Positions 2 through 46,864 of a stretch of DNA of 64,000 nt are shown one piece after another; the stretch's first letter is position 1; each line of letters opens with the position of its first letter. The DNA comes from Candidatus Latescibacterota bacterium (GTDB lineage Bacteria > Latescibacterota > UBA2968), in NCBI GenBank assembly GCA_965207885.1, contig OZ242311.1, forward strand, positions 3,520,001 to 3,584,000. The letters run 5' to 3'. The position numbers and the translations under genes were made by a program. Under the pieces are notes generated by a model, which saw only the letters and a list, made by a program, of their open reading frames with translations, did no database searches and had not been told where the DNA came from.

Positions 2-961
2 GGAATCGATCATTCGGTGATCTCGCGCGTTGGACGCTCGCTTGTCGATTTAATGGGTTTGACGCCGCCATCCCTTGCACAGGGCACGCACAATTCATTT
101 GAAACGGGCAATTTAGAAGGCGCGTCAGCCGAGGCTTTTTTGGATGCGATTCAATTTATCGAAGAAGAACTCAAAGAAGAAACAGGACGGGATATTTCAA
201 TTCCCTTAGACCGAGAAGGCGCGGAAATTTTCTTTTTGCCGCCGTCGGGTGATGTGCTGGTATATGCTGAAAATTTAATGGGCATGGCGAAAATTTTTCA
301 CGCCATCGGTGCCGATTGGACGATGAGCTCGCGGGCATTTGACGGATCGAATTTCGGATTTACGACCGGCAATAACTTCTCAATGAAGTACGAGAACAAG
401 CACTACATTGACGCGTGCGAAAAATTGGGATGTAAGATCATGGTAATGGGCGAATGCGGGCATGCGTATCGGGTGATGAAGTTCATGGCCAGCGAAGGGC
501 GCTGGTGGGGCGCATTGCCTTTTGAGATTACCAGCGGCTTTGAATATACGGCACAACTTATTCGCACGGGCAAACTGAAATTGGACCCGGGCAAAAACCT
601 CGATCCCGTGACTTATCACGACGCTTGCCAATTTGCTGCCGGGTGTGGGATAGTCGAGGAACCCAGAGAGATTTTGAAAGCAGCCTGTGCCGATTACCGC
701 GAAATGCCCGATGGCGGGTACACACAGTGGTGTTGCGGTGGTGGCGGTGGGTTATCGGCACTCCGCTCGGTACGCACATTTCGGATGGAGGTCTCGGGAA
801 AAAAGAAAGCAGAGCAAATGCGCGAGACCGATGCGAAGGTCGTATCGACCTCGTGTTTGCAGTGCCGCACACAGCTCAAAGAAATCGCTCGCCATCACAA
901 AATGCCACTAAAAATTACGGGTGTACACGAGTTGATCAACAATGCGATTGTACTGGAATAG
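2..961 (+). CDS. DsrK/HdrD-like Fe-S oxidoreductase with CCG domains (5' partial, runs off the window)
   Basis: Motifs MGECGHAYR, YHDAC, WCCGGGGG and TSCxxC. The frame is open back to position 2 (GIDHSV, tail of a CPxGID ferredoxin motif). Confidence 0.8.
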   Translation, partial: GIDHSVISRVGRSLVDLMGLTPPSLAQGTHNSFETGNLEGASAEAFLDAIQFIEEELKEETGRDISIPLDREGAEIFFLPPSGDVLVYAENLMGMAKIFHAIGADWTMSSRAFDGSNFGFTTGNNFSMKYENKHYIDACEKLGCKIMVMGECGHAYRVMKFMASEGRWWGALPFEITSGFEYTAQLIRTGKLKLDPGKNLDPVTYHDACQFAAGCGIVEEPREILKAACADYREMPDGGYTQWCCGGGGGLSALRSVRTFRMEVSGKKKAEQMRETDAKVVSTSCLQCRTQLKEIARHHKMPLKITGVHELINNAIVLE

Positions 962-971
962 CCGATAGCTC

Positions 972-2180
972 ATGTCTGATTTAATTTACATGGACAACGC
1001 GGCGACGACGTTTCCAAAGCCCCCCAATGTGCTGGAAGACGCGCTGGCGTTTTATCGCAAATACGGGGTAAATCCCGGGCGCAGTGGCACGGATCTGGCG
1101 CGAGAGGCCGAGGCTATGGTTGCCGAGGCGCGTGCATCGCTCGCGTCGCTTTTTGGCGCCACGGGCAGTCCCGATCGGCTTGTGTTTACACACAATGCCT
1201 CGGATGCGTTAAATATTGCGATTCAAGGCACATTGAAACCCGGTGATCACGTAATTACAACGCTCCTAGATCATAATTCGGTTTTGCGCCCGATTTACCA
1301 CCTCTCAAAATACGAAGGAATTGAGGCGACTTATGTGGGCTTTGGGACAGATGGCTTTATCGACCCAGAGGATATTGATAGAGCGATCAGGCCGAATACA
1401 AAACTCGTGGTGATGACCCATGCATCCAATGTACTGGGCACTGTGCAACCCGTAGCCGCGGTCGGTGCAATTTGCCGTACACGCGGTGTAATTTTTTGCG
1501 TTGATGTGGCGCAAACAGCGGGCATGTTGCCCATTGATATAGAGGCGATGCAGGCCGACATTTTGTGTTTTACCGGACACAAGTCACTCATGGGACCAAC
1601 GGGTACTGGTGGGATGTACGTGCGCGAAGGGGTGACAATTGCACCGTTGCGATACGGCGGAACGGGTGTGCGATCGGAATATCCCGATCATCTGGACGAG
1701 TATCCCTGGCGACTGGAGTGCGGCACGGGCAATCTGATGGGTATTGCAGGCCTGTTGTGTGCGCAGAAATGGATGCAACGCAAAGGCGTGGAAAATATTC
1801 ACGCACACGAGATGGCTTTGTTCAAACAACTGGTCAATGGCCTGCGCGAAGTCGATGGGACCATTTTGTATTGCGCTGAAAATTTTGATCAACACGTGCC
1901 CGTATTGTCGGCCAATATCGAAGGGATGACAGCAAACAATGTGGGCACCTTGCTAGATGTGAAGTTCAATGTGGCAACGCGCACGGGATTGCAATGCGCG
2001 CCAAAGGTACATGAAACTCTGGGCACAAAAGCGGTGAAGGGCACTGTGCGTATTTCGTTAGGCCCCTTCAATACCGAAGCACAAATTGAGACTGTAATTG
2101 AGGGCTTGAGTGATATATCCAAACGGCATGGGCGAAGCAGTGAACAACTGCTAAAAGGTCAGGTGCGGAATGGCCTATGA
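972..2180 (+). CDS. Cysteine desulfurase family (class V PLP aminotransferase)
   Basis: YMDNAATT N-terminus, DVAQ, PLP lysine in TGHK, group II catalytic Cys in RTGLQCAP. Confidence 0.9.
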   Translation: MSDLIYMDNAATTFPKPPNVLEDALAFYRKYGVNPGRSGTDLAREAEAMVAEARASLASLFGATGSPDRLVFTHNASDALNIAIQGTLKPGDHVITTLLDHNSVLRPIYHLSKYEGIEATYVGFGTDGFIDPEDIDRAIRPNTKLVVMTHASNVLGTVQPVAAVGAICRTRGVIFCVDVAQTAGMLPIDIEAMQADILCFTGHKSLMGPTGTGGMYVREGVTIAPLRYGGTGVRSEYPDHLDEYPWRLECGTGNLMGIAGLLCAQKWMQRKGVENIHAHEMALFKQLVNGLREVDGTILYCAENFDQHVPVLSANIEGMTANNVGTLLDVKFNVATRTGLQCAPKVHETLGTKAVKGTVRISLGPFNTEAQIETVIEGLSDISKRHGRSSEQLLKGQVRNGL

Positions 2181-2493
2181 GATTGTGACGCTGGGTGGCA
2201 AAGAAATTGAGGTGGATGAAGATGGATTTATCCAACAACCCGAGCTTTGGAACGAAGATGTAGCGCGCGATATAGCCAGACAAGATGGCATTGAGAAGAT
2301 GAGTGAGGATCACTGGCAGGTAGTGTATTATATCCGAAATTATTGGTTGAAATTTGAAATCGCCCCATTAATCCGCCGCCTGTGCAAAGAGACAGAGAAA
2401 GATATCGATACGATTTACGATCTGTTTTCTGCAGGTCCTGCAGATGGCGCGTGTAAAATCGCGGGTTTGCCAACCCCTACGGGGTGTACGTGA
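2170..2493 (+). CDS. dsrC: DsrC/TusE family sulfur relay protein
   Basis: VDEDGFI...WNEDVA, HW and C-terminal GACKIAGLPTPTGCT, which retains both cysteines (C-X10-C). Confidence 0.85.
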   Translation: MAYEIVTLGGKEIEVDEDGFIQQPELWNEDVARDIARQDGIEKMSEDHWQVVYYIRNYWLKFEIAPLIRRLCKETEKDIDTIYDLFSAGPADGACKIAGLPTPTGCT

Positions 2494-13021: not shown

Positions 13022-13594
13022 TTACCGCCCAATCTCAAAATCACGCGCCACTGCCCTTGCCATCGTCACGAGAACATCGCTGTCGATGCGCTCGCGATAA
13101 TTGGGATTAATATATTGAAATTGGATCTTGCGATTGGGTGCAATTACAAAGAGCGATGGTACGGGCAAAGAGCGTTTTCTATTATTCATAAAAGCAACGC
13201 CATAAGCCTTTGCTGCCTCAAATTCCACATCCGATAATAGCGCAAAATTGAGACCCACGCGATCGCGCACCTCAGCCAATTTTTCAGGCGGATCGGGCGC
13301 AATAGCAATAATTTCAAAACCCAAACCATCCAACTGTGACTTCAGTTCTTGCAGTTGTCCCAACTGCCGTCGGCAATGCGGTCACCAGTATCCCCGATAA
13401 AAAATCAAAATCGTCGGTTTTTTGTGCGCGCCCAGATCAAAATCCCGTCCATTCGCATCGGCGAGCCTCAGCGCGGGAACTTCATCTCCAACCATCAGGG
13501 GACGCACTTTATTGGGCGCATCGGGCAATTGCGCGTGCCCCCATCCAAAAGTACCAAATACTATCAGCAATGCGACCCAGATTATATTCTTCAT
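13022..13594 (-). CDS. Exported AhpC/TSA (peroxiredoxin-like) selenoprotein, 190 aa, with Sec at codon 71
   Basis: Two track ORFs in the same frame are joined by TGA (13384-13382), giving FYRGYW-U-PHC. A hairpin follows immediately downstream. Confidence 0.85.
13351..13367 (-). promoter_or_regulatory. Putative bacterial SECIS element
   Basis: GCAGTTG-GGA-CAACTGC, a perfect 7-bp stem with a G-containing loop, starting 14 nt after the UGA. Confidence 0.7.
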
Positions 13595-13608
13595 AAAAAT
13601 CTCCTATA

Positions 13609-15105
13609 TTACAATGAAAGAATTTTCCTGATCTTCCCCGGTTGTGCCCAGTTGCATTTTCCCTCTCCGTTGAGTTGTCTCAACAAAATGGGAATACCCG
13701 GATGCTGAAGCGCAGCGCAAACCCTCTCGGCATCCCCCTCGTTTCGACAAGGGATAAATGCCTGCATCGCTTGATTCGCCTGCCACACCTGCCCATCCTC
13801 GCTGTTTAAGATCACCGGATGGAAGTCGCTCTTACCATAAGCCTCCCAGATAACCTTGTAGGGCGCAAAAGAATACGGACCAACGCCGAGCAACGACCAC
13901 CAGACGCCTTTGGCAATAGCAGATCGGATCAAAGTACCTCTCCGACCTTCCAGTTTGCCTCTGACCTCAATGAGATATTGTCTGAGTTCGGCATATCGCT
14001 CAATGCTGGCCCACGAAAGCGGTCGTCCTGTATTTCTATTGTATGGAAGCAGAATCCATTTATGCGGAGCCAGGTCCTCATTCTTCCAGATCTCCTTTGT
14101 CGCAAGCGGAAATAGGAACTCCTCTGGCAGGTACCCTGGCTTATCCTCGAACATGAAAATCGCATTTGTACCACAAGTATTCACGCCCTGGCGCGGTTTT
14201 TGGTCAGAAGATAGTTCGACTTTGATGGCGCTAAGATCATCGGTATCCCCGCGTTGAAGAACGCGCCATTGATCGTCAGATGCCTTGAGCGGAACCGTAC
14301 GGTGTTCGGTCCACTCGCCCTGGCGCTCTCTGAAATATCTGATGGGAAATTTGTGCGGCACATCCATGCGAAACCTGGCACAGCAGTAAGATGTGCCTAC
14401 CCCTCCGAATACCTCTGTCTCAGTAAATTCACAGACCTCATCCACCGCAAATCTCCGACCACTGGCGATGTAATCTCTGAATCCCCTGTGAGCATCACCT
14501 GAGAAGAGAGAAAGTGGTAGAAAGAAACATCCTATCCCATTCTTGCACAGCAATTTGCCCAATACGACCTTCAACACCAGTGCGGCTATATCGGTGCGAG
14601 AGGAACCGAGAAGAACCTGTTTTTTATCGGGAACCAGACCTTCTGCCACAAAATAGGGCTTGAGTCTTTCCTTATATGAATTGGACAAATCCGTGAAATT
14701 TGCCCACGGCGGGTTGCCAAACAAAATATCGTACTCACTATTCGGGGGATCTGTAATCACATCTAAAGCGAGAAGCTGAGACGAAGGAAAATCAATCGCG
14801 AATTTCCGACGCGCTTTGTGCTGAAACGCCTGAAGATGTGACGCACGTACCTCGATCAAAGTCAGCCGCGAAAGAAGCTCTGGCGATACCCGAATACCTC
14901 TCGATCTGGCGAGACGAAACAGCGCGAGCGCGAAAGCACCCTGTCCCGCAGTCGGGTCACAAACAGACGCCCCATCAATCCACGCATCGAAAACATCCCA
15001 CCGCTCGATAAGCCATTCTGCCCATTTGATCGGAGTAAAAATCTGTCCCACCTCAACACTGTGTGAATTGTTTATATACATTCTCCTCAACCCATTCCAG
15101 CGCAA
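13609..15105 (-). CDS. Amino (N6-adenine) DNA methyltransferase, apparently orphan
   Basis: GQIFTP, DPTAGQGAF (motif I) and GNPPW (motif IV), in gamma-class order. Confidence 0.85.
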   Translation of the reverse strand: MRWNGLRRMYINNSHSVEVGQIFTPIKWAEWLIERWDVFDAWIDGASVCDPTAGQGAFALALFRLARSRGIRVSPELLSRLTLIEVRASHLQAFQHKARRKFAIDFPSSQLLALDVITDPPNSEYDILFGNPPWANFTDLSNSYKERLKPYFVAEGLVPDKKQVLLGSSRTDIAALVLKVVLGKLLCKNGIGCFFLPLSLFSGDAHRGFRDYIASGRRFAVDEVCEFTETEVFGGVGTSYCCARFRMDVPHKFPIRYFRERQGEWTEHRTVPLKASDDQWRVLQRGDTDDLSAIKVELSSDQKPRQGVNTCGTNAIFMFEDKPGYLPEEFLFPLATKEIWKNEDLAPHKWILLPYNRNTGRPLSWASIERYAELRQYLIEVRGKLEGRRGTLIRSAIAKGVWWSLLGVGPYSFAPYKVIWEAYGKSDFHPVILNSEDGQVWQANQAMQAFIPCRNEGDAERVCAALQHPGIPILLRQLNGEGKCNWAQPGKIRKILSL

Positions 15106-20913: not shown

Positions 20914-22038
20914 TCAAGCCACCTGACGTTGTAGCCCCAACGTCAATATGTTTATCGCAGCATTGTGGTCTCTGTCCGTCTTATAGCCACACGCCTTGCA
21001 ATGATGCACACGATCTGAGAGTGTCTTTTTCTCTCTATGTCCGCATGCCGAGCAATCTTGTGACGTGTATTCAGGATCAACGGCCTTGAATCCAATACCA
21101 GCCTCTTCCGCTTTGTATTCGAGACAGTGCCGAAACAGTGACCACGCTACGTCTGCTATTGATTTAGCCAATCGCTTGTTCTTCTGCATCTCTTTAACGT
21201 CCAATTTCTCTACGGCTATGAAATTGTGACGATTGACCATTTTTCTTGACTCTTGGTGTGCAAAGTTATGTCGCTTATTACGGATGCGCTCATGCACTCT
21301 ACCAATGACTTTACGACGCTTTTCTCTTGTGGGATCGGTCTTGGGTCTTTTTTTCACCGCGTCCCATTTGCGCTGTGCTTTGGCAAGAGCCTTTTCCTCT
21401 TTGCGAAAGAATCTCTGATTCTCTATTTTTTCGCCGTCACTGGTCACAGCAAAGGAATTGAGACCCACGTCAATGCCAACAGCAGAGTTAGTGTTTGGTT
21501 TCTTATCTTTTTCGCCAATATCGCAAGAGATAGACACGAACCATTTGCCTGTTTCTGTGCGTGTGATTGTGCAAGACTTAGGCACACCCTCAAGTGGCCT
21601 GTGCTGGACAATGCGAATGCAACCAATACTGCCCAATCGCAAGCCCTTGCCGTCCAATCGACATCCATTGGAAAACTGAGGGTAGGTGATAGAATCGTAG
21701 CGATTCTCATTCTTGTATCTGGGAAAACCCGCTTTCTCGCCAGTCTTTGACTTCTCTTTGAGACGGCGAAAGAAACCTTTGAATGCCAAATCTACTCTCT
21801 GTGATACTTGTTGCAACACTTGACTATATACTTGCTTGAAAGCAACGTGCTGTTGTTTTAACAATGGTATTGTTTTAGTCTGGTCATATTGCGAGAGAGA
21901 CTTATTCTCATTTTTCCATGCTTGTATTCTCGCACAGAGTAATTGATTATAAAGAATACGACATTCGTCAATATGCGCCAGCAAGATTTGTTCTTGCTTT
22001 TTGGTTGGACGCAATCTATATTTGAACGACTTAAACAT
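20914..22038 (-). CDS. tnpB: RNA-guided endonuclease TnpB
   Basis: KYRLRP HTH, RuvC residues GIDVG / VEKL / DRDxNAA, zinc finger CSAC...CKAC. Confidence 0.95.
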   Translation of the reverse strand: MFKSFKYRLRPTKKQEQILLAHIDECRILYNQLLCARIQAWKNENKSLSQYDQTKTIPLLKQQHVAFKQVYSQVLQQVSQRVDLAFKGFFRRLKEKSKTGEKAGFPRYKNENRYDSITYPQFSNGCRLDGKGLRLGSIGCIRIVQHRPLEGVPKSCTITRTETGKWFVSISCDIGEKDKKPNTNSAVGIDVGLNSFAVTSDGEKIENQRFFRKEEKALAKAQRKWDAVKKRPKTDPTREKRRKVIGRVHERIRNKRHNFAHQESRKMVNRHNFIAVEKLDVKEMQKNKRLAKSIADVAWSLFRHCLEYKAEEAGIGFKAVDPEYTSQDCSACGHREKKTLSDRVHHCKACGYKTDRDHNAAINILTLGLQRQVA

Positions 22039-22044
22039 AATAAA

Positions 22045-22073
22045 AATATACACTTAGGTATTGTTTTTGTCAA
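22045..22073 (-). promoter_or_regulatory. tnpB promoter (probably a leaderless transcript)
   Basis: TTGACA-N17-TATATT, with the ATG (22038) 6 nt downstream. Confidence 0.7.
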
Positions 22074-33083: not shown

Positions 33084-33917
33084 TTAAATGGTTTGAAACC
33101 ACTGCTTATTGACAGTAACTTTTTCAACCAACTCAGTGTTCACACCAAGCTGTAAGTCCTTCAACATCCCAGCAAGTGCATTGCCGTCAATGAGATCCAG
33201 CGGCGGCGCGCCATCGCGCTGTGCTTCAGTCCAAGCATCTCGAGTGAACCTTCCCGTGGTTATCAATAAGCCCTTGTCGGCTCGGCCCACCATAGCCCCT
33301 CTAAAATCTCTAACTGTAGATGCCGTCACCGATCCAACATAGCGTTTACATTGAAATATCACATGAAATGAAAGGAGGTTACCAAGTTTGACCACACCAC
33401 GTCCATCAATACCACCGTCGCCAGCTTTCCCCGTGACCTCAACCTGAATAAAACCAGACTCCCGAAGGATGCGTTGACACAGTCTCTCAAAAGCATCTGG
33501 CGAAATGCTCTGAACAACCTGGATAAGCTCATCCTCCCAACTCAAACTATCCTTATCTTCCTCTTCAAGTTTTGCTTCGTCGCGTTCAGCTCTGGCTTGC
33601 TGGAAAAGTTTCTGCACGAATTGCCTGACTTCTGTAGAGTCAACCGTCTCTGTTTGGTGCCCCTGTGGCGTTAGTGCCCAGACACCACGTGCTGAGTTCT
33701 CGAGTAGACCGTAGTTTTTCAGGTAGTTTCTTGCCCATCCAAGACGGTAATTAAGCGTAGTCAGGTTGCCCTTATGTATGGTGTTTATATCTTCTTCCGA
33801 CAACATGAGAATCTGAGCGACACGATTCGACATCTCTGAGATAGAGCAGGAACCGCCAAGTTCGTGTAGAGCCTGCAATACTGGGTTGAACATCTCGTGG
33901 TAAGGTGGTACTGCCAT
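33084..33917 (-). CDS. mrr: Mrr family (type IV) restriction endonuclease
   Basis: N-terminal winged HTH (WARxYL...RGVW) and DGGIDG...QCKRY catalytic motif. Confidence 0.92.
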   Translation of the reverse strand: MAVPPYHEMFNPVLQALHELGGSCSISEMSNRVAQILMLSEEDINTIHKGNLTTLNYRLGWARNYLKNYGLLENSARGVWALTPQGHQTETVDSTEVRQFVQKLFQQARAERDEAKLEEEDKDSLSWEDELIQVVQSISPDAFERLCQRILRESGFIQVEVTGKAGDGGIDGRGVVKLGNLLSFHVIFQCKRYVGSVTASTVRDFRGAMVGRADKGLLITTGRFTRDAWTEAQRDGAPPLDLIDGNALAGMLKDLQLGVNTELVEKVTVNKQWFQTI

Positions 33918-35153
33918 GGATTCTCCTCTAACTTTCTAGTTTACCTTGCTCTCATGAATACGCTTACCGACCATCGCATAGTTGTCGGCGTAGATCAGAG
34001 ATTTGTTCTAACGTCGATACGATATCGCTGTCTTGCTAGTCCTGTATTTGTGTGAAAATAATCCAGTTTGATATGATGACTTCCCCTCATTTATAACCCT
34101 ATCTATATTACATGAAAAAACGAAATTGGTAGGGTGTCCGCCTCAGGCTTGGCATACGCTTGACTACCCGCGCGAGTACCTTCGCATAACCCAGAGTAAC
34201 TGGCAGCGGATCATACAGTGAATCATTGTTCCAGTTCATCTTTGAAAGCCCTAACACGGCACGTGCCGTGTCATCCCACACCCCATGGCCAGCATGACGC
34301 ACCAACCTCAAGGGACGAGGAGTACTCCTAGAACCTTTAAAATAGGATCTTCTTTCACTGATGTTTATCACGTCACCATGTGTCCACAGAAGAGCATCTC
34401 GGGACCCAAGGTCAACTAGGGTTCCACGCAAAACTGGGTAAGCAGCAGGATCCCCTTTAACACCACCTGTGGACTCATCAATGCGCACACCGCGCCAACC
34501 CACATCTTCAACTACCTGCACGAGATCAATTGCCTCGCATAGGTGAAATGCCTCCATGCAGCCTTTGACTTCATCCGCCTTGAACTCAGTGGTCTTATGC
34601 ACCATAATCCGTCGAGGTGATCGCCCTGCGTGGTGTCGCCGATAGAGGTCGAGAGACCGGGACATTACCCGAAACATCTCAGTGCGTGATAGAAAGGGGT
34701 TGTCACGTTGCACTTCAACTTCATGGGTATTGTAGGCAATAAACTCCAAACCGGAACCCTCGGCATCGAACACCTGACTGCAGCATGTAACAAAGCGTGG
34801 ATTGTCAGATTCCGTTGGACGAACGGCGTATGAAATACCGATATATGCCGTTTCCGAATCCGACTCTGCCAGCTTCCAAGGGACTCCGCCAGCCTTGACA
34901 TAGAGCGCCAAACCAATACGCCACATGACACTGGCTTGGCACGAGTATGTGAGAGCGCTGTCTTCTCTCACCAGCTGAATGGGTAATCCAAGAGCTGCCG
35001 TTGTTGCCTTCAGGTGATCGTGAAGGTCGAAGTCTTCATCGGATGCTCCGGTATAGCCAGGATTCCATCGCTGAGGGATGTAGACGAACAGGACATCGAA
35101 CTTACTTCTGTACGTCTGCAAACGTTGAATAGCTCGGACCAACCGCTCAGCTA

Positions 35154-36090
35154 GGTAGTGTCTGAAAAGTCGTAAAGTATGTATTTTAGTTGCAGCATAC
35201 GCCCTAAACCAAGGAGTATGATATGCAACGGAGATATGAACTGCGCGACGAGGCTTGGCATCTGATCCAAGACCTGTTCCCACCGCCGAAGAAGATGGGT
35301 CGTCCCCGTCGGGATGATCGTACATTATTCAACGGGATCTTCTGGATATTGTGTTCAGGTGCAGCTTGGCGCGACCTGCCAGAACGATATGGTCCTTGGC
35401 AGACAGCCTTTGACCGATTCTGCAAATGGAAACAGGATGGCACCTTTGATCGCATTGTAGAAAAGCTACATCTCAAATTGGGTGAAGATGGTCTTTTAGA
35501 TTATGCGACCTGGATGATGGATGCAACCCATATTCGAGCCACACAAGCCGCGGCAGGAGCGAAAAAAAAAGGGCAAAAAGGGTGAAGAAGAGCCCCCAGA
35601 TCACGCTTTAGGACGCTCTCGTGGCGGTTTGACCACGAAAATCCATCTTCTTTGCGATGCAGTCGGGCATCCTTTAGCAGTGGATCTTCTCCCTGGTAAC
35701 CAGTCAGAATCCACACAGGCTGAAAGGCTACTGTCAAAGGTATGCATACCCACCAAACGAGGGCGTCCAAGAAACCGACCCAAGTATCTGGTAGCTGATA
35801 AATCTTATGATGTCTCACGCATCAGAGTCTATCTACGCAAACGGGGTATCAAGGCTGCTATCCCAAACAAGGCGATTCCCAAAGGCAGAAAACGGCGTAA
35901 GAGAGGACCACGGCCTAAGTGTGATAAAAGATTATATGCCAAACGCAATATCGTGGAGCGTCTCTTTGGTTGGCTTAAACACTGCCGACGGATTGTGACC
36001 CGATTTGAAAAAAAGGCGACTCATTTTCTCACTATGGTCAAGCTGGCCTGTATCAGACAACTCTTCAAAGCTTACTTTTCAGACACTACC
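35154..36090 (+). mobile_element. IS5 family insertion sequence, 937 bp
   Basis: Perfect 17-bp terminal inverted repeats GGTAGTGTCTGAAAAGT, flanked by a TA duplication (35152-53 and 36091-92). Confidence 0.95.
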
Positions 36091-36093
36091 TAA
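35223..36093 (+). CDS. IS5 transposase in two frames joined at an A9 run
   Basis: ORF-A has WRDLPERYGPWQT and MDAT; ORF-B has GRSRGGLTTKIH, ADKSYD and RNIVERLF. A9 run at 35562-35570. Confidence 0.88.
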
Positions 36094-36464
36094 TACAATA
36101 TGAGGACTCGGAGAATTATTAAATTCGGTCTCAAGTTCCTGGTCAAGCTCAACGTGGCAATCACCACCTGCCGCTCTCATATGCACACCAAAGACACGTT
36201 GAAAACCCGGCCATTCAGGGAGATAATCCTTGCGTTCCTTCGGTATGTGCGTCGAATTAAGGCGCGTCATGAAGCTATATAGATGGTTACTTTCCCCGGC
36301 GGGAGCCAAGGTAGCCACTCGAATTGGATCCGGTAATATCCCCGCGGAGTATGGGCCAAACCGCAACAGCCCACGCAATGGATGAATCTCACTATCTGAA
36401 GTACGATCTGGATGGAAGATTAGGCTTGGCTCCGGTAGCCAGATGTGCGGGGCGATCTCGCTGT

Positions 36465-38207
36465 TCATGATCCTATTCTTCTTGAAAATCCTGTAATGGG
36501 AGAAAGGCGATAGACCGCGTCTATACCACCACTAATATCCAGGGCCCGTAGATCGTCTTGAGGTTGGCCCAAGTGACGACTCCAGAACTCAATCAGATCG
36601 TTGAGTTGTCTGTTATAGCGTTTGACACTGCGTTCTCTACCGAAATCCGCTGAAATCATCTTGTTTTCTTGAGTGATACCATCGAACACGGTTCGTGGTT
36701 CTATCAGCAACCACAAGCGATCATTTGCCCAGTCTAGGCGTATACCGATACCCTCGCGCCAGTGGACCTCGGGGCTACCAGCAACTGTTCCAGTAAGCGT
36801 ACCCACTAGTTTCCTCAACTGTGTCCAGGTACTTGACTCTGGGTCGGTGGGTGCCAATAAGTCCACTCTTCCGCGCCGGACAACCTCCAGACCGCGCTGA
36901 CGTGCGATTGCACGGGTTAGTGCATCTCGAAGGATACCTCGCTCGCTTGATTCATACCTTTGGCGTCTTGTGTCGAATGTATGAAGATCGAAGTCTGTAA
37001 TGTCGTAGAGTTCAAAAGCTGTACGTACATCAGCATTGGTACCAAATGCCAATACGCCGACTTGGGAGCGCGCAGCGATCACGTCGACGCCAGCATGCTC
37101 TATCGCCTTGCGCACTTCAGCGGTACCACCAATGTCACAAACGACGCGTCTGCACACGCTCGGCACATCAGTCACTGGCAAAGCGTTGAAACGCACCACT
37201 GGCCAACCACGCTTACCTGTTGGGCGCGGCGCTGCACTCCAGTGTCGGCGTTCCGAAGCAAAAGCGTCGAGCGTTGTAGTGTCGATGTCATCTATTTGGC
37301 GAATCAGATCCCGCAATGCTTCGTCAAAGTTATCAATTGACACTACGCCCACTTCTATCCCCTTCTCATCTGCTTTGGACAACAATTCACAAACGCGCGG
37401 CAACGGCTGACCTTCCCCGTGATGCAACCAAAATAGTCCCGACGGAAAGGATCCTCGGCGTTGAGTTGCTTCATCAAGAGCATCCATAACAGAATCGTCA
37501 CGACCACTATAGCCAACTACTACAAGTCCAAATCTACTACAGGAATCGATGAAAATATTTCTTAGATGTGTATCCTGATGTCGTAGTTCTTCAGTGGTAT
37601 TCTTGAGTCTCCGTGACTGAAAATCACCATGCAGCTTCACTTCCACCGGCCATCGCTCCTCATGAATTGCCTGCTCCCCTAATTCAGGCGCATCGAGGGC
37701 TACACTCGTCAATGAACCAGTTGTGTCATAAATCTTGGCGCAAGCGTCTGCCACCATGGCATCAAAATTCGTTGTCCATACCAGACGTGTACGATTGGCG
37801 CGCATCAGAGTTGCGAGAGCCAAGTGACCGTACGATGGTTTTGCACCTGCTAGCTTTGCATTAATATAGGCACGCCGATCTCCTTCGGATGGATACACCT
37901 CTTCAAATAGTGCGGCATATTCGCCGGGATCCCCAGCACAAGGCAACCGCTTAAAAGAGTCAATGTAGGTCTGTAATTGCACCTGGATAGCCGGATTTGA
38001 GAGATCTGCCACAGATTGGCGCGATACCTTGCGCTGACTGACAAACAATTCCTGTTTGAATTGCCAGATCATGTCCGTCGCGGTAGGAAGACCAGCGGAG
38101 GCCGAGGCACCAGCACCAAGCAACCACATCAGACTGGACGAACGTATAGAGAAGCGTCTTACGAAGTCGTCCGAGTTGATTTGAGGTAGTAATGACTTAG
38201 TATTCAT
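36465..38207 (-). CDS. SIR2-APAZ NADase effector of a short-Argonaute system
   Basis: LLGAGAS, TTNFD, KLHGD and GYSGRD motifs, C-terminal APAZ-like region (RYNRQLN), ATGA overlap with ago. Confidence 0.9.
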   Translation of the reverse strand: MNTKSLLPQINSDDFVRRFSIRSSSLMWLLGAGASASAGLPTATDMIWQFKQELFVSQRKVSRQSVADLSNPAIQVQLQTYIDSFKRLPCAGDPGEYAALFEEVYPSEGDRRAYINAKLAGAKPSYGHLALATLMRANRTRLVWTTNFDAMVADACAKIYDTTGSLTSVALDAPELGEQAIHEERWPVEVKLHGDFQSRRLKNTTEELRHQDTHLRNIFIDSCSRFGLVVVGYSGRDDSVMDALDEATQRRGSFPSGLFWLHHGEGQPLPRVCELLSKADEKGIEVGVVSIDNFDEALRDLIRQIDDIDTTTLDAFASERRHWSAAPRPTGKRGWPVVRFNALPVTDVPSVCRRVVCDIGGTAEVRKAIEHAGVDVIAARSQVGVLAFGTNADVRTAFELYDITDFDLHTFDTRRQRYESSERGILRDALTRAIARQRGLEVVRRGRVDLLAPTDPESSTWTQLRKLVGTLTGTVAGSPEVHWREGIGIRLDWANDRLWLLIEPRTVFDGITQENKMISADFGRERSVKRYNRQLNDLIEFWSRHLGQPQDDLRALDISGGIDAVYRLSPITGFSRRIGS

Positions 38208-43764: not shown

Positions 43765-44700
43765 CTAAAACGCGGTGAGATCAAAGGGATTGGACCACGC
43801 CTTGTCGCCATTTGGTGCAATAATCTCAAAACGCACGTATTTTGAGTCGGGCCGCAGCTTGAAAGTGGCGGTCTCAAACAGCTTACCGCCCTCATAGTAT
43901 TCGGTCCCCCTCGAATCTAATACCGCGGCAATGCGCTGCGCAGGTGAACATTTTACTGTGACTTCAACCGTGCGCCCTTCCCCACTATGCAACCGAATAT
44001 CAAAAATTTGCGGCCCCGTTGACGCATAACCCGCGCCAGATTCCAGGGCTTCAACAATAGCTTCTGGCGACCGTTCCTTCACGCGCACCATAGTCCAGCC
44101 CTGATACGTATCTCGCTCTTCTGAATCAGCCGCGTGGGAATCGTCATTGCCCAGTGCCGGGAGCAATTGTCCGGACAAATCCATCCAATCGTCCCAATGC
44201 ACAGAAGACTCACCGCGTCCGGCGCACCGACATGTCGTATTAAAAACTTCTATACCCGCCAAACCCGTCAGCGGCATTGTATCGCGCAAAATATTGATCC
44301 CGCTCCAGTGCGGATGTGCGAGCCAGATCGAGCCACCCTGTTTTTTTACTTCATCAATCACATGTTGCGGGGGCATAGCCCGCGCATCCATATCCTCTGA
44401 AATATTGAGTGCCACAAAGTGGTGGCGGTCCCCACCAAAGGGATTATCGGGATGCAATTCAGCACCCTGAATAAGCGTGAAATTTTCAGGACAAGTCAGT
44501 GTCTCGACAAATGTGATATTATTGTGATCGGATACACACAAATAATCGTAGCCCTGATTGACATACCCATCCACGCGTTCTTGCGGCGAGACCCGCCCAT
44601 CCGAATTTGTCGAGTGACTGTGCAAATTGCCCTTCAGCCACATATAACCATCGCCATCAGATAAAACAAACGGATTTACCAACCCATTTTCTACGGACAT
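43765..44700 (-). CDS. PHP-domain metallohydrolase (CehA/McbA-like)
   Basis: GNLHSHSxxSDG, SDHN, AHP and DDSH motifs. Confidence 0.82.
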   Translation of the reverse strand: MSVENGLVNPFVLSDGDGYMWLKGNLHSHSTNSDGRVSPQERVDGYVNQGYDYLCVSDHNNITFVETLTCPENFTLIQGAELHPDNPFGGDRHHFVALNISEDMDARAMPPQHVIDEVKKQGGSIWLAHPHWSGINILRDTMPLTGLAGIEVFNTTCRCAGRGESSVHWDDWMDLSGQLLPALGNDDSHAADSEERDTYQGWTMVRVKERSPEAIVEALESGAGYASTGPQIFDIRLHSGEGRTVEVTVKCSPAQRIAAVLDSRGTEYYEGGKLFETATFKLRPDSKYVRFEIIAPNGDKAWSNPFDLTAF

Positions 44701-44724
44701 AACAAACTCCTTTGAATTAATTTC

Positions 44725-45858
44725 TCACCTCTGCCACCAGATCTTCCCCGCCCGGACAGACGCACGACAAACCAACCGCTGCTCGCCCATCAACACCTGC
44801 TGCATTGCATCGGTCAACTCAAATTTACCCTTTTCCAATTCAAATATAGCGACATCGCCCGCAGCACCAACCCTCAGGTGTCCGAGATCATTCTCTCGAT
44901 CAATCACCTGTGCCGGTTCAATGGTTGAGCGTTGAATCACTTCCTCGAGCGACATACCCAAATTCAGGAACTTGGACATCGTCGTCGGCAAGTCGTAAAC
45001 AGGACCATCGATATTGTACGAATGGATATCACTGCTGATGGTATCGGGTGGGAAACCATCTTCCATAGCTGCGCGCCCCACGTCGTAACTAAAACTGCCC
45101 AACCCGTGACCAATGTCAAAAATTACCCCGCGATCGCGTGCATCCCATGCCTCAGAAATCACCTTTCCCCGATTGTCGATAATCGACGCGGGTTGCGTAC
45201 CGTGAAAACAATGGGTCACAATATCGCCGGGGCGCAGAGGCTGAAGCAGGTCGCGCAAAAGCACATCGGCATTGCTGATATGAACCATCAGGGGTTTTTC
45301 GCACCGATTGGCGGCCTCCAGGGCAATTTGCAACAAATCGCGCACATCCGCATCGCCGCCCACGCCTTTGTACAAACGCACCTTAACGCCCAGTGCTGTT
45401 TTCGGGTGATTCAAAACCGTCTGTGCACATTCGCTGGCCGATACATAGCCTTCATACACCATCTCGCCGCGCCGCCAGGGCAACCCGACACCCGACAGAT
45501 TGACATAGGCCAAAATACGCGTTGAAGACGGCGCCATTACATAGCGCTCCAATCCGCGATAATTGATCCATCCCGCCGTTCCCGTATCAACGCTCGTTGT
45601 CACGCCTGTGCGCGGACACAGTTCATCGGCCTCTATGCCAAAACTCGACACATCTTTGTACACATGGGTATGCAAATCGATCAGTCCCGGCGTCACGAGA
45701 CATCCGCTTGCATCAATCACTGAATCGGCCTCACCCAAATCGCGCCCAATAGCTGCTACCACGCCATCCTTCAACGCCACATCCAATGTACCCCGCACCC
45801 CATTAGCCGGGTCTATCACCGTGCCACTTGTTATCAAAACATCGTATTGACCAGCCAT
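44725..45858 (-). CDS. Amidohydrolase/deacetylase (dihydroorotase-like)
   Basis: PGLIDLHTH, GVKVR, MVH, THCFH, GHGxGSF and ISSD motifs. Confidence 0.85.
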   Translation of the reverse strand: MAGQYDVLITSGTVIDPANGVRGTLDVALKDGVVAAIGRDLGEADSVIDASGCLVTPGLIDLHTHVYKDVSSFGIEADELCPRTGVTTSVDTGTAGWINYRGLERYVMAPSSTRILAYVNLSGVGLPWRRGEMVYEGYVSASECAQTVLNHPKTALGVKVRLYKGVGGDADVRDLLQIALEAANRCEKPLMVHISNADVLLRDLLQPLRPGDIVTHCFHGTQPASIIDNRGKVISEAWDARDRGVIFDIGHGLGSFSYDVGRAAMEDGFPPDTISSDIHSYNIDGPVYDLPTTMSKFLNLGMSLEEVIQRSTIEPAQVIDRENDLGHLRVGAAGDVAIFELEKGKFELTDAMQQVLMGEQRLVCRASVRAGKIWWQR

Positions 45859-45865
45859 ACCATCC

Positions 45866-46864
45866 TCACGATCGCTCTGCAATATAAGTTTTGGAATCGA
45901 TTTTTCCCGCAACAATCAATTCGCGGAACAATGCCACAGTTTCAGCCACGCCTTCTGTCAGTGGCTTGTGCGCCACTGTGCCAATCGCAGCTTCTAATCC
46001 ACTCCCATCGACTTCCTGGGGAAATGGCAACTGAATATCTTCAAACGTAATCTTATCCGCAGCTTCAGGTGCTGCCCGATCAATCGCATCCTTCACATCC
46101 TGCATATCGGGTGCAAATCCGCCCAAATTAAACGCTCCTGCCCCCGCGTAATCAGCCCGTGCAGCCTGAATAAACGCGCGCGCCGTATCATCCGCATACT
46201 GAAAAACCGTACGCCCACCATAAGAAATATGATAGGGCAAATTCGCCGCTGCTGCGAGCATTGCCGTCGTTGGCGTAGAAGTAATTCCCTGATCTCGCCC
46301 CACCCCATAGACCACATAGGGACGAAAACCTATAGAAGACACACCCTCGTCGAGCCAATACACATGCGCGGTTCCCTCATTCGCCTGTTTGTACACGCCG
46401 TAATGCGTATGGGGCATCAACGTGGAATCATCTCGCATCACAGCGTCAGGCTCGTAATCCTCGGGCGCACCAAAAACAGCGACAGAGCTCGCATAGACCA
46501 CTTTGTCAATGCGCTCCCGTCGGCGTTTCACAGCTTCAAAAACATTTGCAGTACCCACCACATTGACGCGCGCACCAAGTGGTGGATCGGCCTTGCAAAA
46601 CGGCACTTGAAGCCCGGCCAGATGTATGACATGGGTAATATCATTATCGTCCAGAGCCTCTTCAAAAGCGGACAAATCCGCAATATCTCCTGCAACAAAA
46701 TTTACCTGCGCCAATTCGTCATCTGACAGCAACAATTGCAAACGTAGAGGCTCTGTCGCCAGATCAAATACCGTGACTGGCACCCCTTCCTGCACCAGAT
46801 TGTGCACGGTCCATGCGCCAATACACCCCAATGCACCCGTAACTAAAAAACGCTCGTCAGCCAT
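45866..46864 (-). CDS. NAD-dependent epimerase/dehydratase
   Basis: TGALGCIG and YGVYK motifs. Confidence 0.85.
   Translation of the reverse strand: MADERFLVTGALGCIGAWTVHNLVQEGVPVTVFDLATEPLRLQLLLSDDELAQVNFVAGDIADLSAFEEALDDNDITHVIHLAGLQVPFCKADPPLGARVNVVGTANVFEAVKRRRERIDKVVYASSVAVFGAPEDYEPDAVMRDDSTLMPHTHYGVYKQANEGTAHVYWLDEGVSSIGFRPYVVYGVGRDQGITSTPTTAMLAAAANLPYHISYGGRTVFQYADDTARAFIQAARADYAGAGAFNLGGFAPDMQDVKDAIDRAAPEAADKITFEDIQLPFPQEVDGSGLEAAIGTVAHKPLTEGVAETVALFRELIVAGKIDSKTYIAERS

Follow-up and report, generated by a model that had tools for sequence, protein, structure and literature searches.

Described Prx-Like Selenoproteins

According to two metagenomic surveys, Prx-like selenoproteins with a UxxC motif have long been known and form an abundant family (PMC1088965; PMC2398784). 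The Sargasso Sea study reported, among known selenoproteins, a "Prx-like protein" whose UxxC motif is thioredoxin-like and takes the place of TxxU, for which 22 sequences were given, 21 of them with UxxC (PMC1088965). In Table 2 of the GOS study, the family "Prx-like 1" (pfam00578), also with UxxC, comprised 225 selenoproteins and 2,740 Cys homologs (PMC2398784). The pairing of TGA with Cys in homologs is described in the Sargasso Sea study as the signature used to define selenoproteins (PMC1088965).

The redoxin gene of this study is located on the minus strand at 13022..13594 of a 64-kb window, which is the whole stretch of DNA that was analysed. It most likely encodes a "Prx-like UxxC" selenoprotein of the kind already described from marine metagenomes and known in bacteria since 2005. 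Similar to the described proteins, the redoxin possesses an AhpC/TSA domain, a proposed selenocysteine (Sec) at the first position of UxxC and not the TxxU of Sec-peroxiredoxins, many Cys homologs and, as far as the published descriptions go, a candidate SECIS-like hairpin shortly behind the UGA, with a small apical loop that contains a G. Different from the marine sets, it originates from a Latescibacterota MAG, has a predicted signal peptide and contains UPHC, whereas its nearest Cys homologs mostly contain CPYC or CPFC. "Prx-like 1" and "Prx-like 3" (pfam08534) were compared with the redoxin by their published descriptions and not by sequences, and the exact subfamily is not fixed by this comparison. 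A literature search on selenocysteine or selenoproteins in Latescibacteria, judged mostly from listings of results, returned nothing relevant; in PMC8318568, the sole mention of Latescibacteria was in a listing of genomes that had been reconstructed.

Gene Structure and Annotation

The gene comprises 190 codons, from an ATG at 13594-13592 to a TAA at 13024-13022, with a single in-frame TGA. When this TGA was read as U, the frame ran unshifted from start to stop and U71 was the only odd codon. An AGGAG sequence resembling a Shine-Dalgarno element was read at 13601..13605 (minus strand), with a spacer of 6 nt to the ATG. The codon proposed to specify selenocysteine, codon 71 (13382..13384, minus strand), is found in the context TAT CGG GGA TAC TGG TGA CCG CAT TGC, within the protein motif FYRGYW-U-PHC; its position within W-U-P-H-C was established from the sequence and from the alignment of homologs. 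Under translation table 11, the frame is split into a 70-aa ORF (13382-13594) and a 113-aa ORF (13022-13363). The latter is an artefactual "gene" on the minus strand (13022..13363) that a standard gene finder calls from an internal TTG start.

A previous sequence-only reading of this DNA had proposed that a UGA at the first Cys of a FYRGxWCPxC motif joins two ORFs, in an unshifted frame, into a protein of 190 aa that gene callers would split. The position of the TGA agreed with the alignment of homologs and the frame with the translation in which TGA was read as U, and the splitting was apparent from 37 clusters of C-terminal fragments and a 71-member cluster of N-terminal fragments in the protein databases. 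The region 13022-13594 most likely encodes one 190-residue protein, and is neither two ORFs nor a pseudogene.

When 5.8 billion proteins were searched, 53 matches were obtained, none of which was a full-length close relative. Thirty-seven of them, each a separate database cluster, were C-terminal fragments of 107 or 113 aa that started just past the TGA and were 72–96% identical to the redoxin, and two were aberrant fragments (P0040 and P0045). The other 14 were full-length proteins with about 28–41% identity and the motif FYRG-x-W-C-P-x-C. The N-terminal cluster consisted of fragments of 70/91 aa that were labelled "hypothetical protein". In public protein sets, the Latescibacterota gene is represented solely by pieces of 70/91 aa and 107/113 aa. 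It is a real and conserved gene whose annotation is systematically wrong. Four of the 70-aa N-terminal fragments (P0218–P0221) were deposited as "hypothetical protein [Gemmatimonadota bacterium]", and the genome records with the same gene (L001–L016) were titled Latescibacterota. Thus, the taxonomic labels of the protein records and those of the genome records of these MAGs conflict.

Codons 1–21 (13532..13594, minus strand) are predicted to encode a signal peptide on the basis of the sequence, the alignment of orthologs and the confidence of an AlphaFold2 (AF2) model. The N-terminus contains MKN followed by about 15 mostly hydrophobic residues and then G-H-A|Q, as a previous description of it as signal peptide-like would lead one to expect. 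Cleavage would likely follow G-H-A, which is V-x-A in two of the orthologs (L015 and L016). In the AF2 model, the N-terminal helix of residues 3–15 was of low confidence and the pLDDT of residues 11–20 was <50. The Cys homologs likewise possess N-terminal hydrophobic or lipoprotein-like leaders. These features suggest that the protein is exported out of the cytoplasm.

Cys Homologs

In an all-against-library search, 8459 representatives had E-values of at most 0.001, and for 1786 of them the E-value was at most 1e-10. Pairing of Cys with the UGA in homologs, which the sequence-only reading had named as a check, was found in two sets of proteins. In the 14 full-length homologs, the leading Cys of CxxC was aligned to U71, and CxxC was found at the U71 site in 141 of the best 150 of the 8459 representatives (137 by a motif pattern and 4 that the pattern had missed). 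Also among these best 150 were four Sec-form fragments (P0056, P0133, P0068, and P0040) and five variants, which were SPSC, GHVC, DPFC, CPYG and one multidomain protein. The motifs of the Cys forms among the best 150 were mostly CPYC (86) or CPFC (33), and CPHC was seen once. CPHC was also found in a group of proteins (P0041–P0053) with roughly 30% identity.

The Cys proteins with FYRGxWCPxC that are annotated as "peroxiredoxin-like family protein" or "peroxiredoxin" (such as P0039, P0041–P0054, and P0058) were 28–47% identical to the redoxin and had Cys at the position of its UGA. They were similar to the redoxin in their length class and in having an N-terminal leader or a lipoprotein-like signal, and they shared with it F65, Y66, R67, G68, W70, C74, L143, P144, P146, P164, Y166, and R169. 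In most of them, however, residue 139 was followed by an insertion of 15–25 residues, which is missing from the Sec form.

One of the fragments of the Sec form, P0068, was 55% identical to the redoxin and had the same MGQLQ start, a hint that there may be a second Sec lineage at a greater distance. Among the relatives, P0088 was a full-length protein of 224 aa with S-P-S-C at the position of C/U-x-x-C, followed by RQLGQL as in the Sec form. This protein may be a naturally occurring Ser variant whose SxxC motif resembles that of Prx.

Fold and Active Site

The redoxin matched the Pfam families AhpC-TSA (PF00578; 94.3 bits, 6.9e-27, gathering threshold 26) and Redoxin (PF08534; 70.1 bits, 2.3e-19, gathering threshold 26.6). 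All NCBIfam models that it touched, in contrast, were below their curated cutoffs. The scores were 60 bits against 140 for BCP (NF006960), 45.8 against 120 for SelL_rel_redox (NF040769), which was the second-best match and covered only residues 38–132, 44.6 against 170 for ResA, 31.5 against 230 for TlpA, 28.8 against 300 for WAxxUGC and 17.3 against 298 for Prx-SUH. The SelL-related redox family shares the Prx-like fold and is linked to selenoproteins, but with a score below the cutoff the redoxin is not a member of it.

An AF2 model built from an alignment of 23 sequences had a pLDDT of 88.6 and a pTM of 0.83. In this model, U71-P-H-C74 is predicted to lie directly before a helix of residues 72–90. 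A Foldseek search against the PDB returned Bcp4 (3hjp; TM 0.90 on target) as the first match, followed by BcpB, PrxQ, AhpE, LsfA, and ResA. The E-values for the BCP/PrxQ/AhpE structures (3hjp, 5epf, 2cx3/4gqf, and 1xvw) ranged from 1e-14 to 1e-11.

The redoxin shares with BCP/PrxQ and AhpE the fold and the correspondence of C74 to the peroxidatic Cys, but the flanking Thr/Ser, Arg and Pro are replaced by U71, P146, and R67, respectively. This was evident from the HMMER alignment to the BCP of A. pernix (2cx3), in which C74 occupied the position of the peroxidatic Cys, U71 was at the Ser of S-x-x-C, R67 at the motif Pro and P146 at the Arg of K-R-A-V-F. The aligned Thr/Ser, Arg and Pro positions are those that we take to be the residues of the peroxiredoxin triad. 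Hence the P-x-x-x-T/S-x-x-C motif and the conserved Arg of peroxiredoxins are absent from the redoxin in this alignment. Present instead are the thioredoxin-like features, a U-x-x-C at the N-terminal end of a helix together with a Pro loop that is conserved, which define a working model and not a curated family. In the alignment with the Cys homologs (A4), the residues F65, Y66, R67, G68, W70, C71 (in the Cys homologs) and C74 were invariant, as were L143, P144, and P146.

TlpA, ResA and DsbE are exported, periplasmic thiol-disulfide oxidoreductases of the thioredoxin fold, in which W-C-x-x-C is placed at a helix N-terminus and the Pro loop is conserved, which is the arrangement proposed for the redoxin; they matched the redoxin in sequence and fold, yet below the family cutoffs. 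Because the Thr/Ser and Arg of peroxiredoxins are replaced and UxxC and the invariant L143, P144, and P146 are present, the model and the alignments describe a peroxiredoxin-like scaffold with a thioredoxin-like active site, composed of UxxC and the Pro loop. The sequence-only reading had called the protein seleno-peroxiredoxin-like. The AhpC/TSA fold implied by that term stood in the Pfam, AF2 and Foldseek results; the triad of a true peroxiredoxin did not, its place being taken by the thioredoxin-like UxxC.

The protein might nevertheless be a Sec-containing true peroxidase, in which H2O2 or organic peroxides would be reduced directly by Sec71 (or C74), like in Sec-peroxiredoxins or glutathione peroxidases. 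Selenolates do not require a dedicated triad to react rapidly with peroxides, and the nearest matches in both sequence and structure are the BCP/PrxQ/AhpE peroxiredoxins, with C74 aligned to the peroxidatic Cys of the A. pernix protein. However, Ser is replaced by U71, Arg by P146 and the motif Pro by R67, and the combination of an invariant UxxC with an L-P-x-P loop is the pattern of thioredoxin, TlpA and ResA, of which ResA and TlpA were matched as well. We therefore regard a true peroxidase as rather unlikely, although it is the alternative that survives best. Provided that the gene encodes a Sec protein, disulfide-type exchange is favored over a dedicated peroxidase chemistry.

Conservation of the UGA Codon

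One scan of species-representative genomes identified 53 loci (L001–L053). Sixteen of them (L001–L016) were from Candidatus Latescibacterota MAGs, many of which were closed chromosomes, and matched residues 1–190 with identities of 74–94%. The remaining 37 loci (L017–L053) were rejected as orthologs. They encoded TlpA/ResA-like CxxC proteins that had been caught by a short GFEIIAIA pattern, were 25–38% identical to the redoxin and all had Cys, and they were left out of the evidence for the Sec/Cys pair.

TGA was found at codon 71 in 17/17 sequences, i.e., in the gene of the window and in all 16 related Latescibacterota loci. A TGC or TGT codon in close relatives, which the sequence-only reading had said would speak for a simple nonsense mutation, was found in none of the 16. 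All 17 sequences had a length of 573 nt, a single internal stop codon and zero indels, and the synonymous divergence among the 17 genomes reached up to about 0.8 substitutions per site. The mean dN/dS over 136 pairs was 0.19 for codons 2–70 and 0.17 for codons 72–190. Purifying selection thus operates on both sides of the TGA, and both halves are translated and constrained.

TGA was also the commonest stop codon of the window, where it terminated 27 of 51 long ORFs. The redoxin gene was the sole one of the 51 with a TGA in frame, none being found in the other 50. Since 27/51 ORFs end in TGA and the other 50 hold none in frame, TGA is not reassigned in the source organism.

Hairpin Downstream of the UGA Codon

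A candidate bacterial SECIS hairpin is located at 13351..13367 on the minus strand and starts 14 nt after the UGA. Its sequence (13367-13351) is GCAGTTG-GGA-CAACTGC, which forms a perfect 7-bp stem with a GGA loop. The perfect hairpin 14 nt downstream of the TGA had been pointed out before from the sequence; it is indeed there, and it is kept in 17/17 genomes. A stem-loop of 17 nt about 14 nt after the UGA fits the geometry of the E. coli fdhF SECIS element. It also fits the description of bacterial SECIS elements given in the Sargasso Sea study, which have a small apical loop with a G and are located just after the UGA (PMC1088965).

Comparable perfect hairpins, with a 7-bp stem, a loop of 3–10 nt and a start 8–25 nt downstream of the TGA, were found for 27 of the 2161 TGA triplets in the window (1.2%). 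The isolated hairpin of 23 nt had a folding energy of -8.8 kcal/mol (z = -3.5), and 0/200 shuffled sequences were as stable. Longer contexts showed no extra stability over shuffled sequences (z = -0.66 for 43 nt and +0.13 for 66 nt). Moreover, an overlapping alternative hairpin with a 6-bp stem and a GAC loop (13363..13377, minus strand), which would compete with the SECIS candidate, was the minimum free energy fold of the 43-nt context. Because of these results, thermodynamics alone is weak evidence for the hairpin.

The conservation of TGA and hairpin in 17/17 genomes appears to be a stronger argument than the folding energy. Across the gene, synonymous variation was observed in 116 of 182 degenerate codons of the 17 sequences. 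None was observed in the six hairpin codons 76–81 (CGG CAG TTG GGA CAA CTG). The 9-codon window of codons 76–84, with synonymous variation in one codon, was the minimum of the gene, and no window elsewhere had fewer than 4. All 119 stem cells (7 pairs in 17 sequences) were standard pairs. The sole change in the stem was an A to G in L013, which changes Q to R and retains a U-G pair; compensatory double changes were found in 0/7 pairs of the 13351-13367 stem among the 17 sequences. The comparative support for the hairpin would therefore be one of conservation and not of covariation.

The alternative hairpin (13377-13363) was paired in 102/102 cells, with U-G changed to C-G in three sequences and no pair changed on both sides among the 17 sequences. 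Covariation thus does not decide between the two. The 13351-13367 hairpin is nevertheless preferred, because the frozen GGA loop and the frozen 3' arm would be explained solely by it. A lower stem in which the UGA region would pair with GUCACAGU was dropped, as several of its pairs were broken in 1–2 sequences. Rfam yielded no match in the region 13280-13420 even when E-values up to 10 were allowed; to our knowledge, Rfam has no bacterial SECIS family, so this result is uninformative.

Probable Selenocysteine Decoding

We consider it very likely that this is a real gene and that Sec is inserted at UGA71 of a probably exported redox protein with a thioredoxin fold. That Sec rather than another residue is placed at the UGA we infer from the sequence comparisons. 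The genes of the Sec machinery were looked for in the 64-kb window: selA, selB, and selD were not found in Pfam scans of 50 window ORFs, and ARAGORN identified solely a tRNA-Phe and no tRNA-Sec. The tRNA-Phe was also the only match of the whole window to Rfam at gathering thresholds, and no tRNA was found by ARAGORN in the flanks of L001–L016.

The lack of selA, selB, selD and tRNA-Sec from the window counts against Sec decoding. The UGA might alternatively be read through without Sec, by insertion of a near-cognate Trp or Cys that is aided by the UGA-C context and the hairpin, or translation might terminate at the UGA and restart at TTG, which would yield two products. A downstream hairpin can stimulate read-through, and an in-frame TTG is indeed found 6 codons past the TGA. 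However, TGA serves as the main stop codon of the window, and in this gene it coincides precisely with the position of the nucleophilic Cys in a redox motif, where homologs have Cys. Trp or Gly at position 71 would destroy the redox center, and the product of a restart would have neither the signal peptide nor the UxxC motif. Both variants are thus improbable. That a CxxC redoxin was killed by a TGC/TGT-to-TGA nonsense mutation has a negligible probability, for although the frame is interrupted under table 11 and Sec machinery was not seen in the 64-kb window, the TGA is shared by all 17 genomes in spite of their synonymous divergence, indels and extra stops are absent, the hairpin is frozen at synonymous sites, and the low dN/dS on both sides shows both halves to be translated and constrained, which therefore excludes a pseudogene.

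Genomic Context

The gene order, with a methyltransferase-like gene, the redoxin gene, a gene for an MFS_3 transporter and a heparinase II/III-like gene, was kept in 16/16 loci. This conserved order says little about function because the 16 genomes are close relatives. The conserved upstream neighbor (13609-15105, minus strand) encodes a protein of 498 aa with an NPPW motif and a weak match to models of type II/IIG DNA methyltransferases (PADLOC 1.7e-23); it had no Pfam match at E = 1e-5, and no adjoining nuclease partner was seen.

About 11 kb from the selenoprotein gene, the region 17-2493 (plus strand) contains three adjacent genes, which encode a DsrK-like CCG-domain iron-sulfur protein (220 bits, cutoff 400), an aminotransferase of class V and a protein similar to DsrC. 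The aminotransferase passed the cutoff of TIGR01977, "cysteine desulfurase family protein" (419.7 against 377 bits), and its second-best model was the selenocysteine lyase SclA (330.8 against 525 bits). These genes may point to sulfur or selenium trafficking, which is a weak lead. The DsrC-like protein itself was rejected as a selenoprotein, as its gene ends normally with ...TGCT-stop. Further selenoprotein genes in the window were also rejected, since the TGA-bridged extensions were adjacent genes in the same frame or contained several TGAs. At 43765-45915 (minus strand), an amidohydrolase ORF ends with TGA and is followed 9 codons later, in the same frame, by an ORF of 311 aa without a Pfam match. 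This arrangement is probably a coincidence of two adjacent genes.

The window also contains a short prokaryotic Argonaute defence system (34108-38207, minus strand). It includes a SIR2-APAZ-type protein (36465-38207; PADLOC Aga_SIR2-PNTD1-PNTD2, 4.5e-187) and a class I pAgo that is split into an N-terminal piece of 129 aa (36079-36468, model positions 2-122) and a piece of 405 aa (34108-35325, model positions 119-457). DDE transposase ORFs are found between the two pieces, in an insertion at 35223-36093 (plus strand), and the system appears to have been broken by an insertion sequence. Adjoining this locus is a gene for an Mrr-type (type IV, methyl-directed) restriction endonuclease (33084-33917, minus strand; Mrr_cat 1.1e-29, PADLOC mREase_IV 2.2e-27), and the two together look like a small defence island. 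In addition, an IS605-family OrfB/TnpB with a Cas12f-like TNB domain (20914-22053, minus strand) is located among glycosyltransferase and radical-SAM genes.

Proposed Function

With Sec at the UGA as the preferred reading, translation would start at the ATG at 13594. A SelB-type factor on the hairpin at 13367-13351 would deliver Sec-tRNA(Sec) at UGA codon 71, and the chain would run on to the TAA at 13022. A signal peptide of ~21 residues would direct the export of the protein by the Sec-pathway, with cleavage after A21. The mature domain of ~169 residues would adopt the peroxiredoxin/BCP variant of the thioredoxin fold, in which U71-P-H-C74 would be placed at the start of helix 72–90 and face the conserved L-P-V-P loop. 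The protein would then function as a selenol/thiol oxidoreductase, whose Sec71 selenolate would attack an oxidised substrate (a disulfide, a sulfenate or a peroxide). C74 would resolve the adduct, and the resulting U71-C74 selenenylsulfide would be recycled by some reductant. SelB binding to the hairpin, the substrate and the reductant are the parts of this scheme that we infer. No reductant of the CcdA/DsbD type was found in Pfam scans of the ORFs of the window.

Implications

The finding reveals no new mechanism, as UxxC Prx-like selenoproteins and the way of finding them have been known since 2004–2008. What it concerns is a redox enzyme that is conserved in a phylum without cultured members, is stored as two meaningless fragments and is consequently missed in reconstructions of the proteome and metabolism. 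It is possible, and put forward here only tentatively, that the gene is the first visible marker of an undescribed Sec-decoding trait in Latescibacterota, with an exported selenoprotein that carries a DsbA-like U-P-H-C on a peroxiredoxin scaffold and a periplasmic selenenylsulfide chemistry that may be unlike that of the CPYC/CPFC homologs. If Sec decoding is confirmed, the Latescibacterota that carry this gene would depend on selenium, and further split genes of their genomes ought to be read anew.
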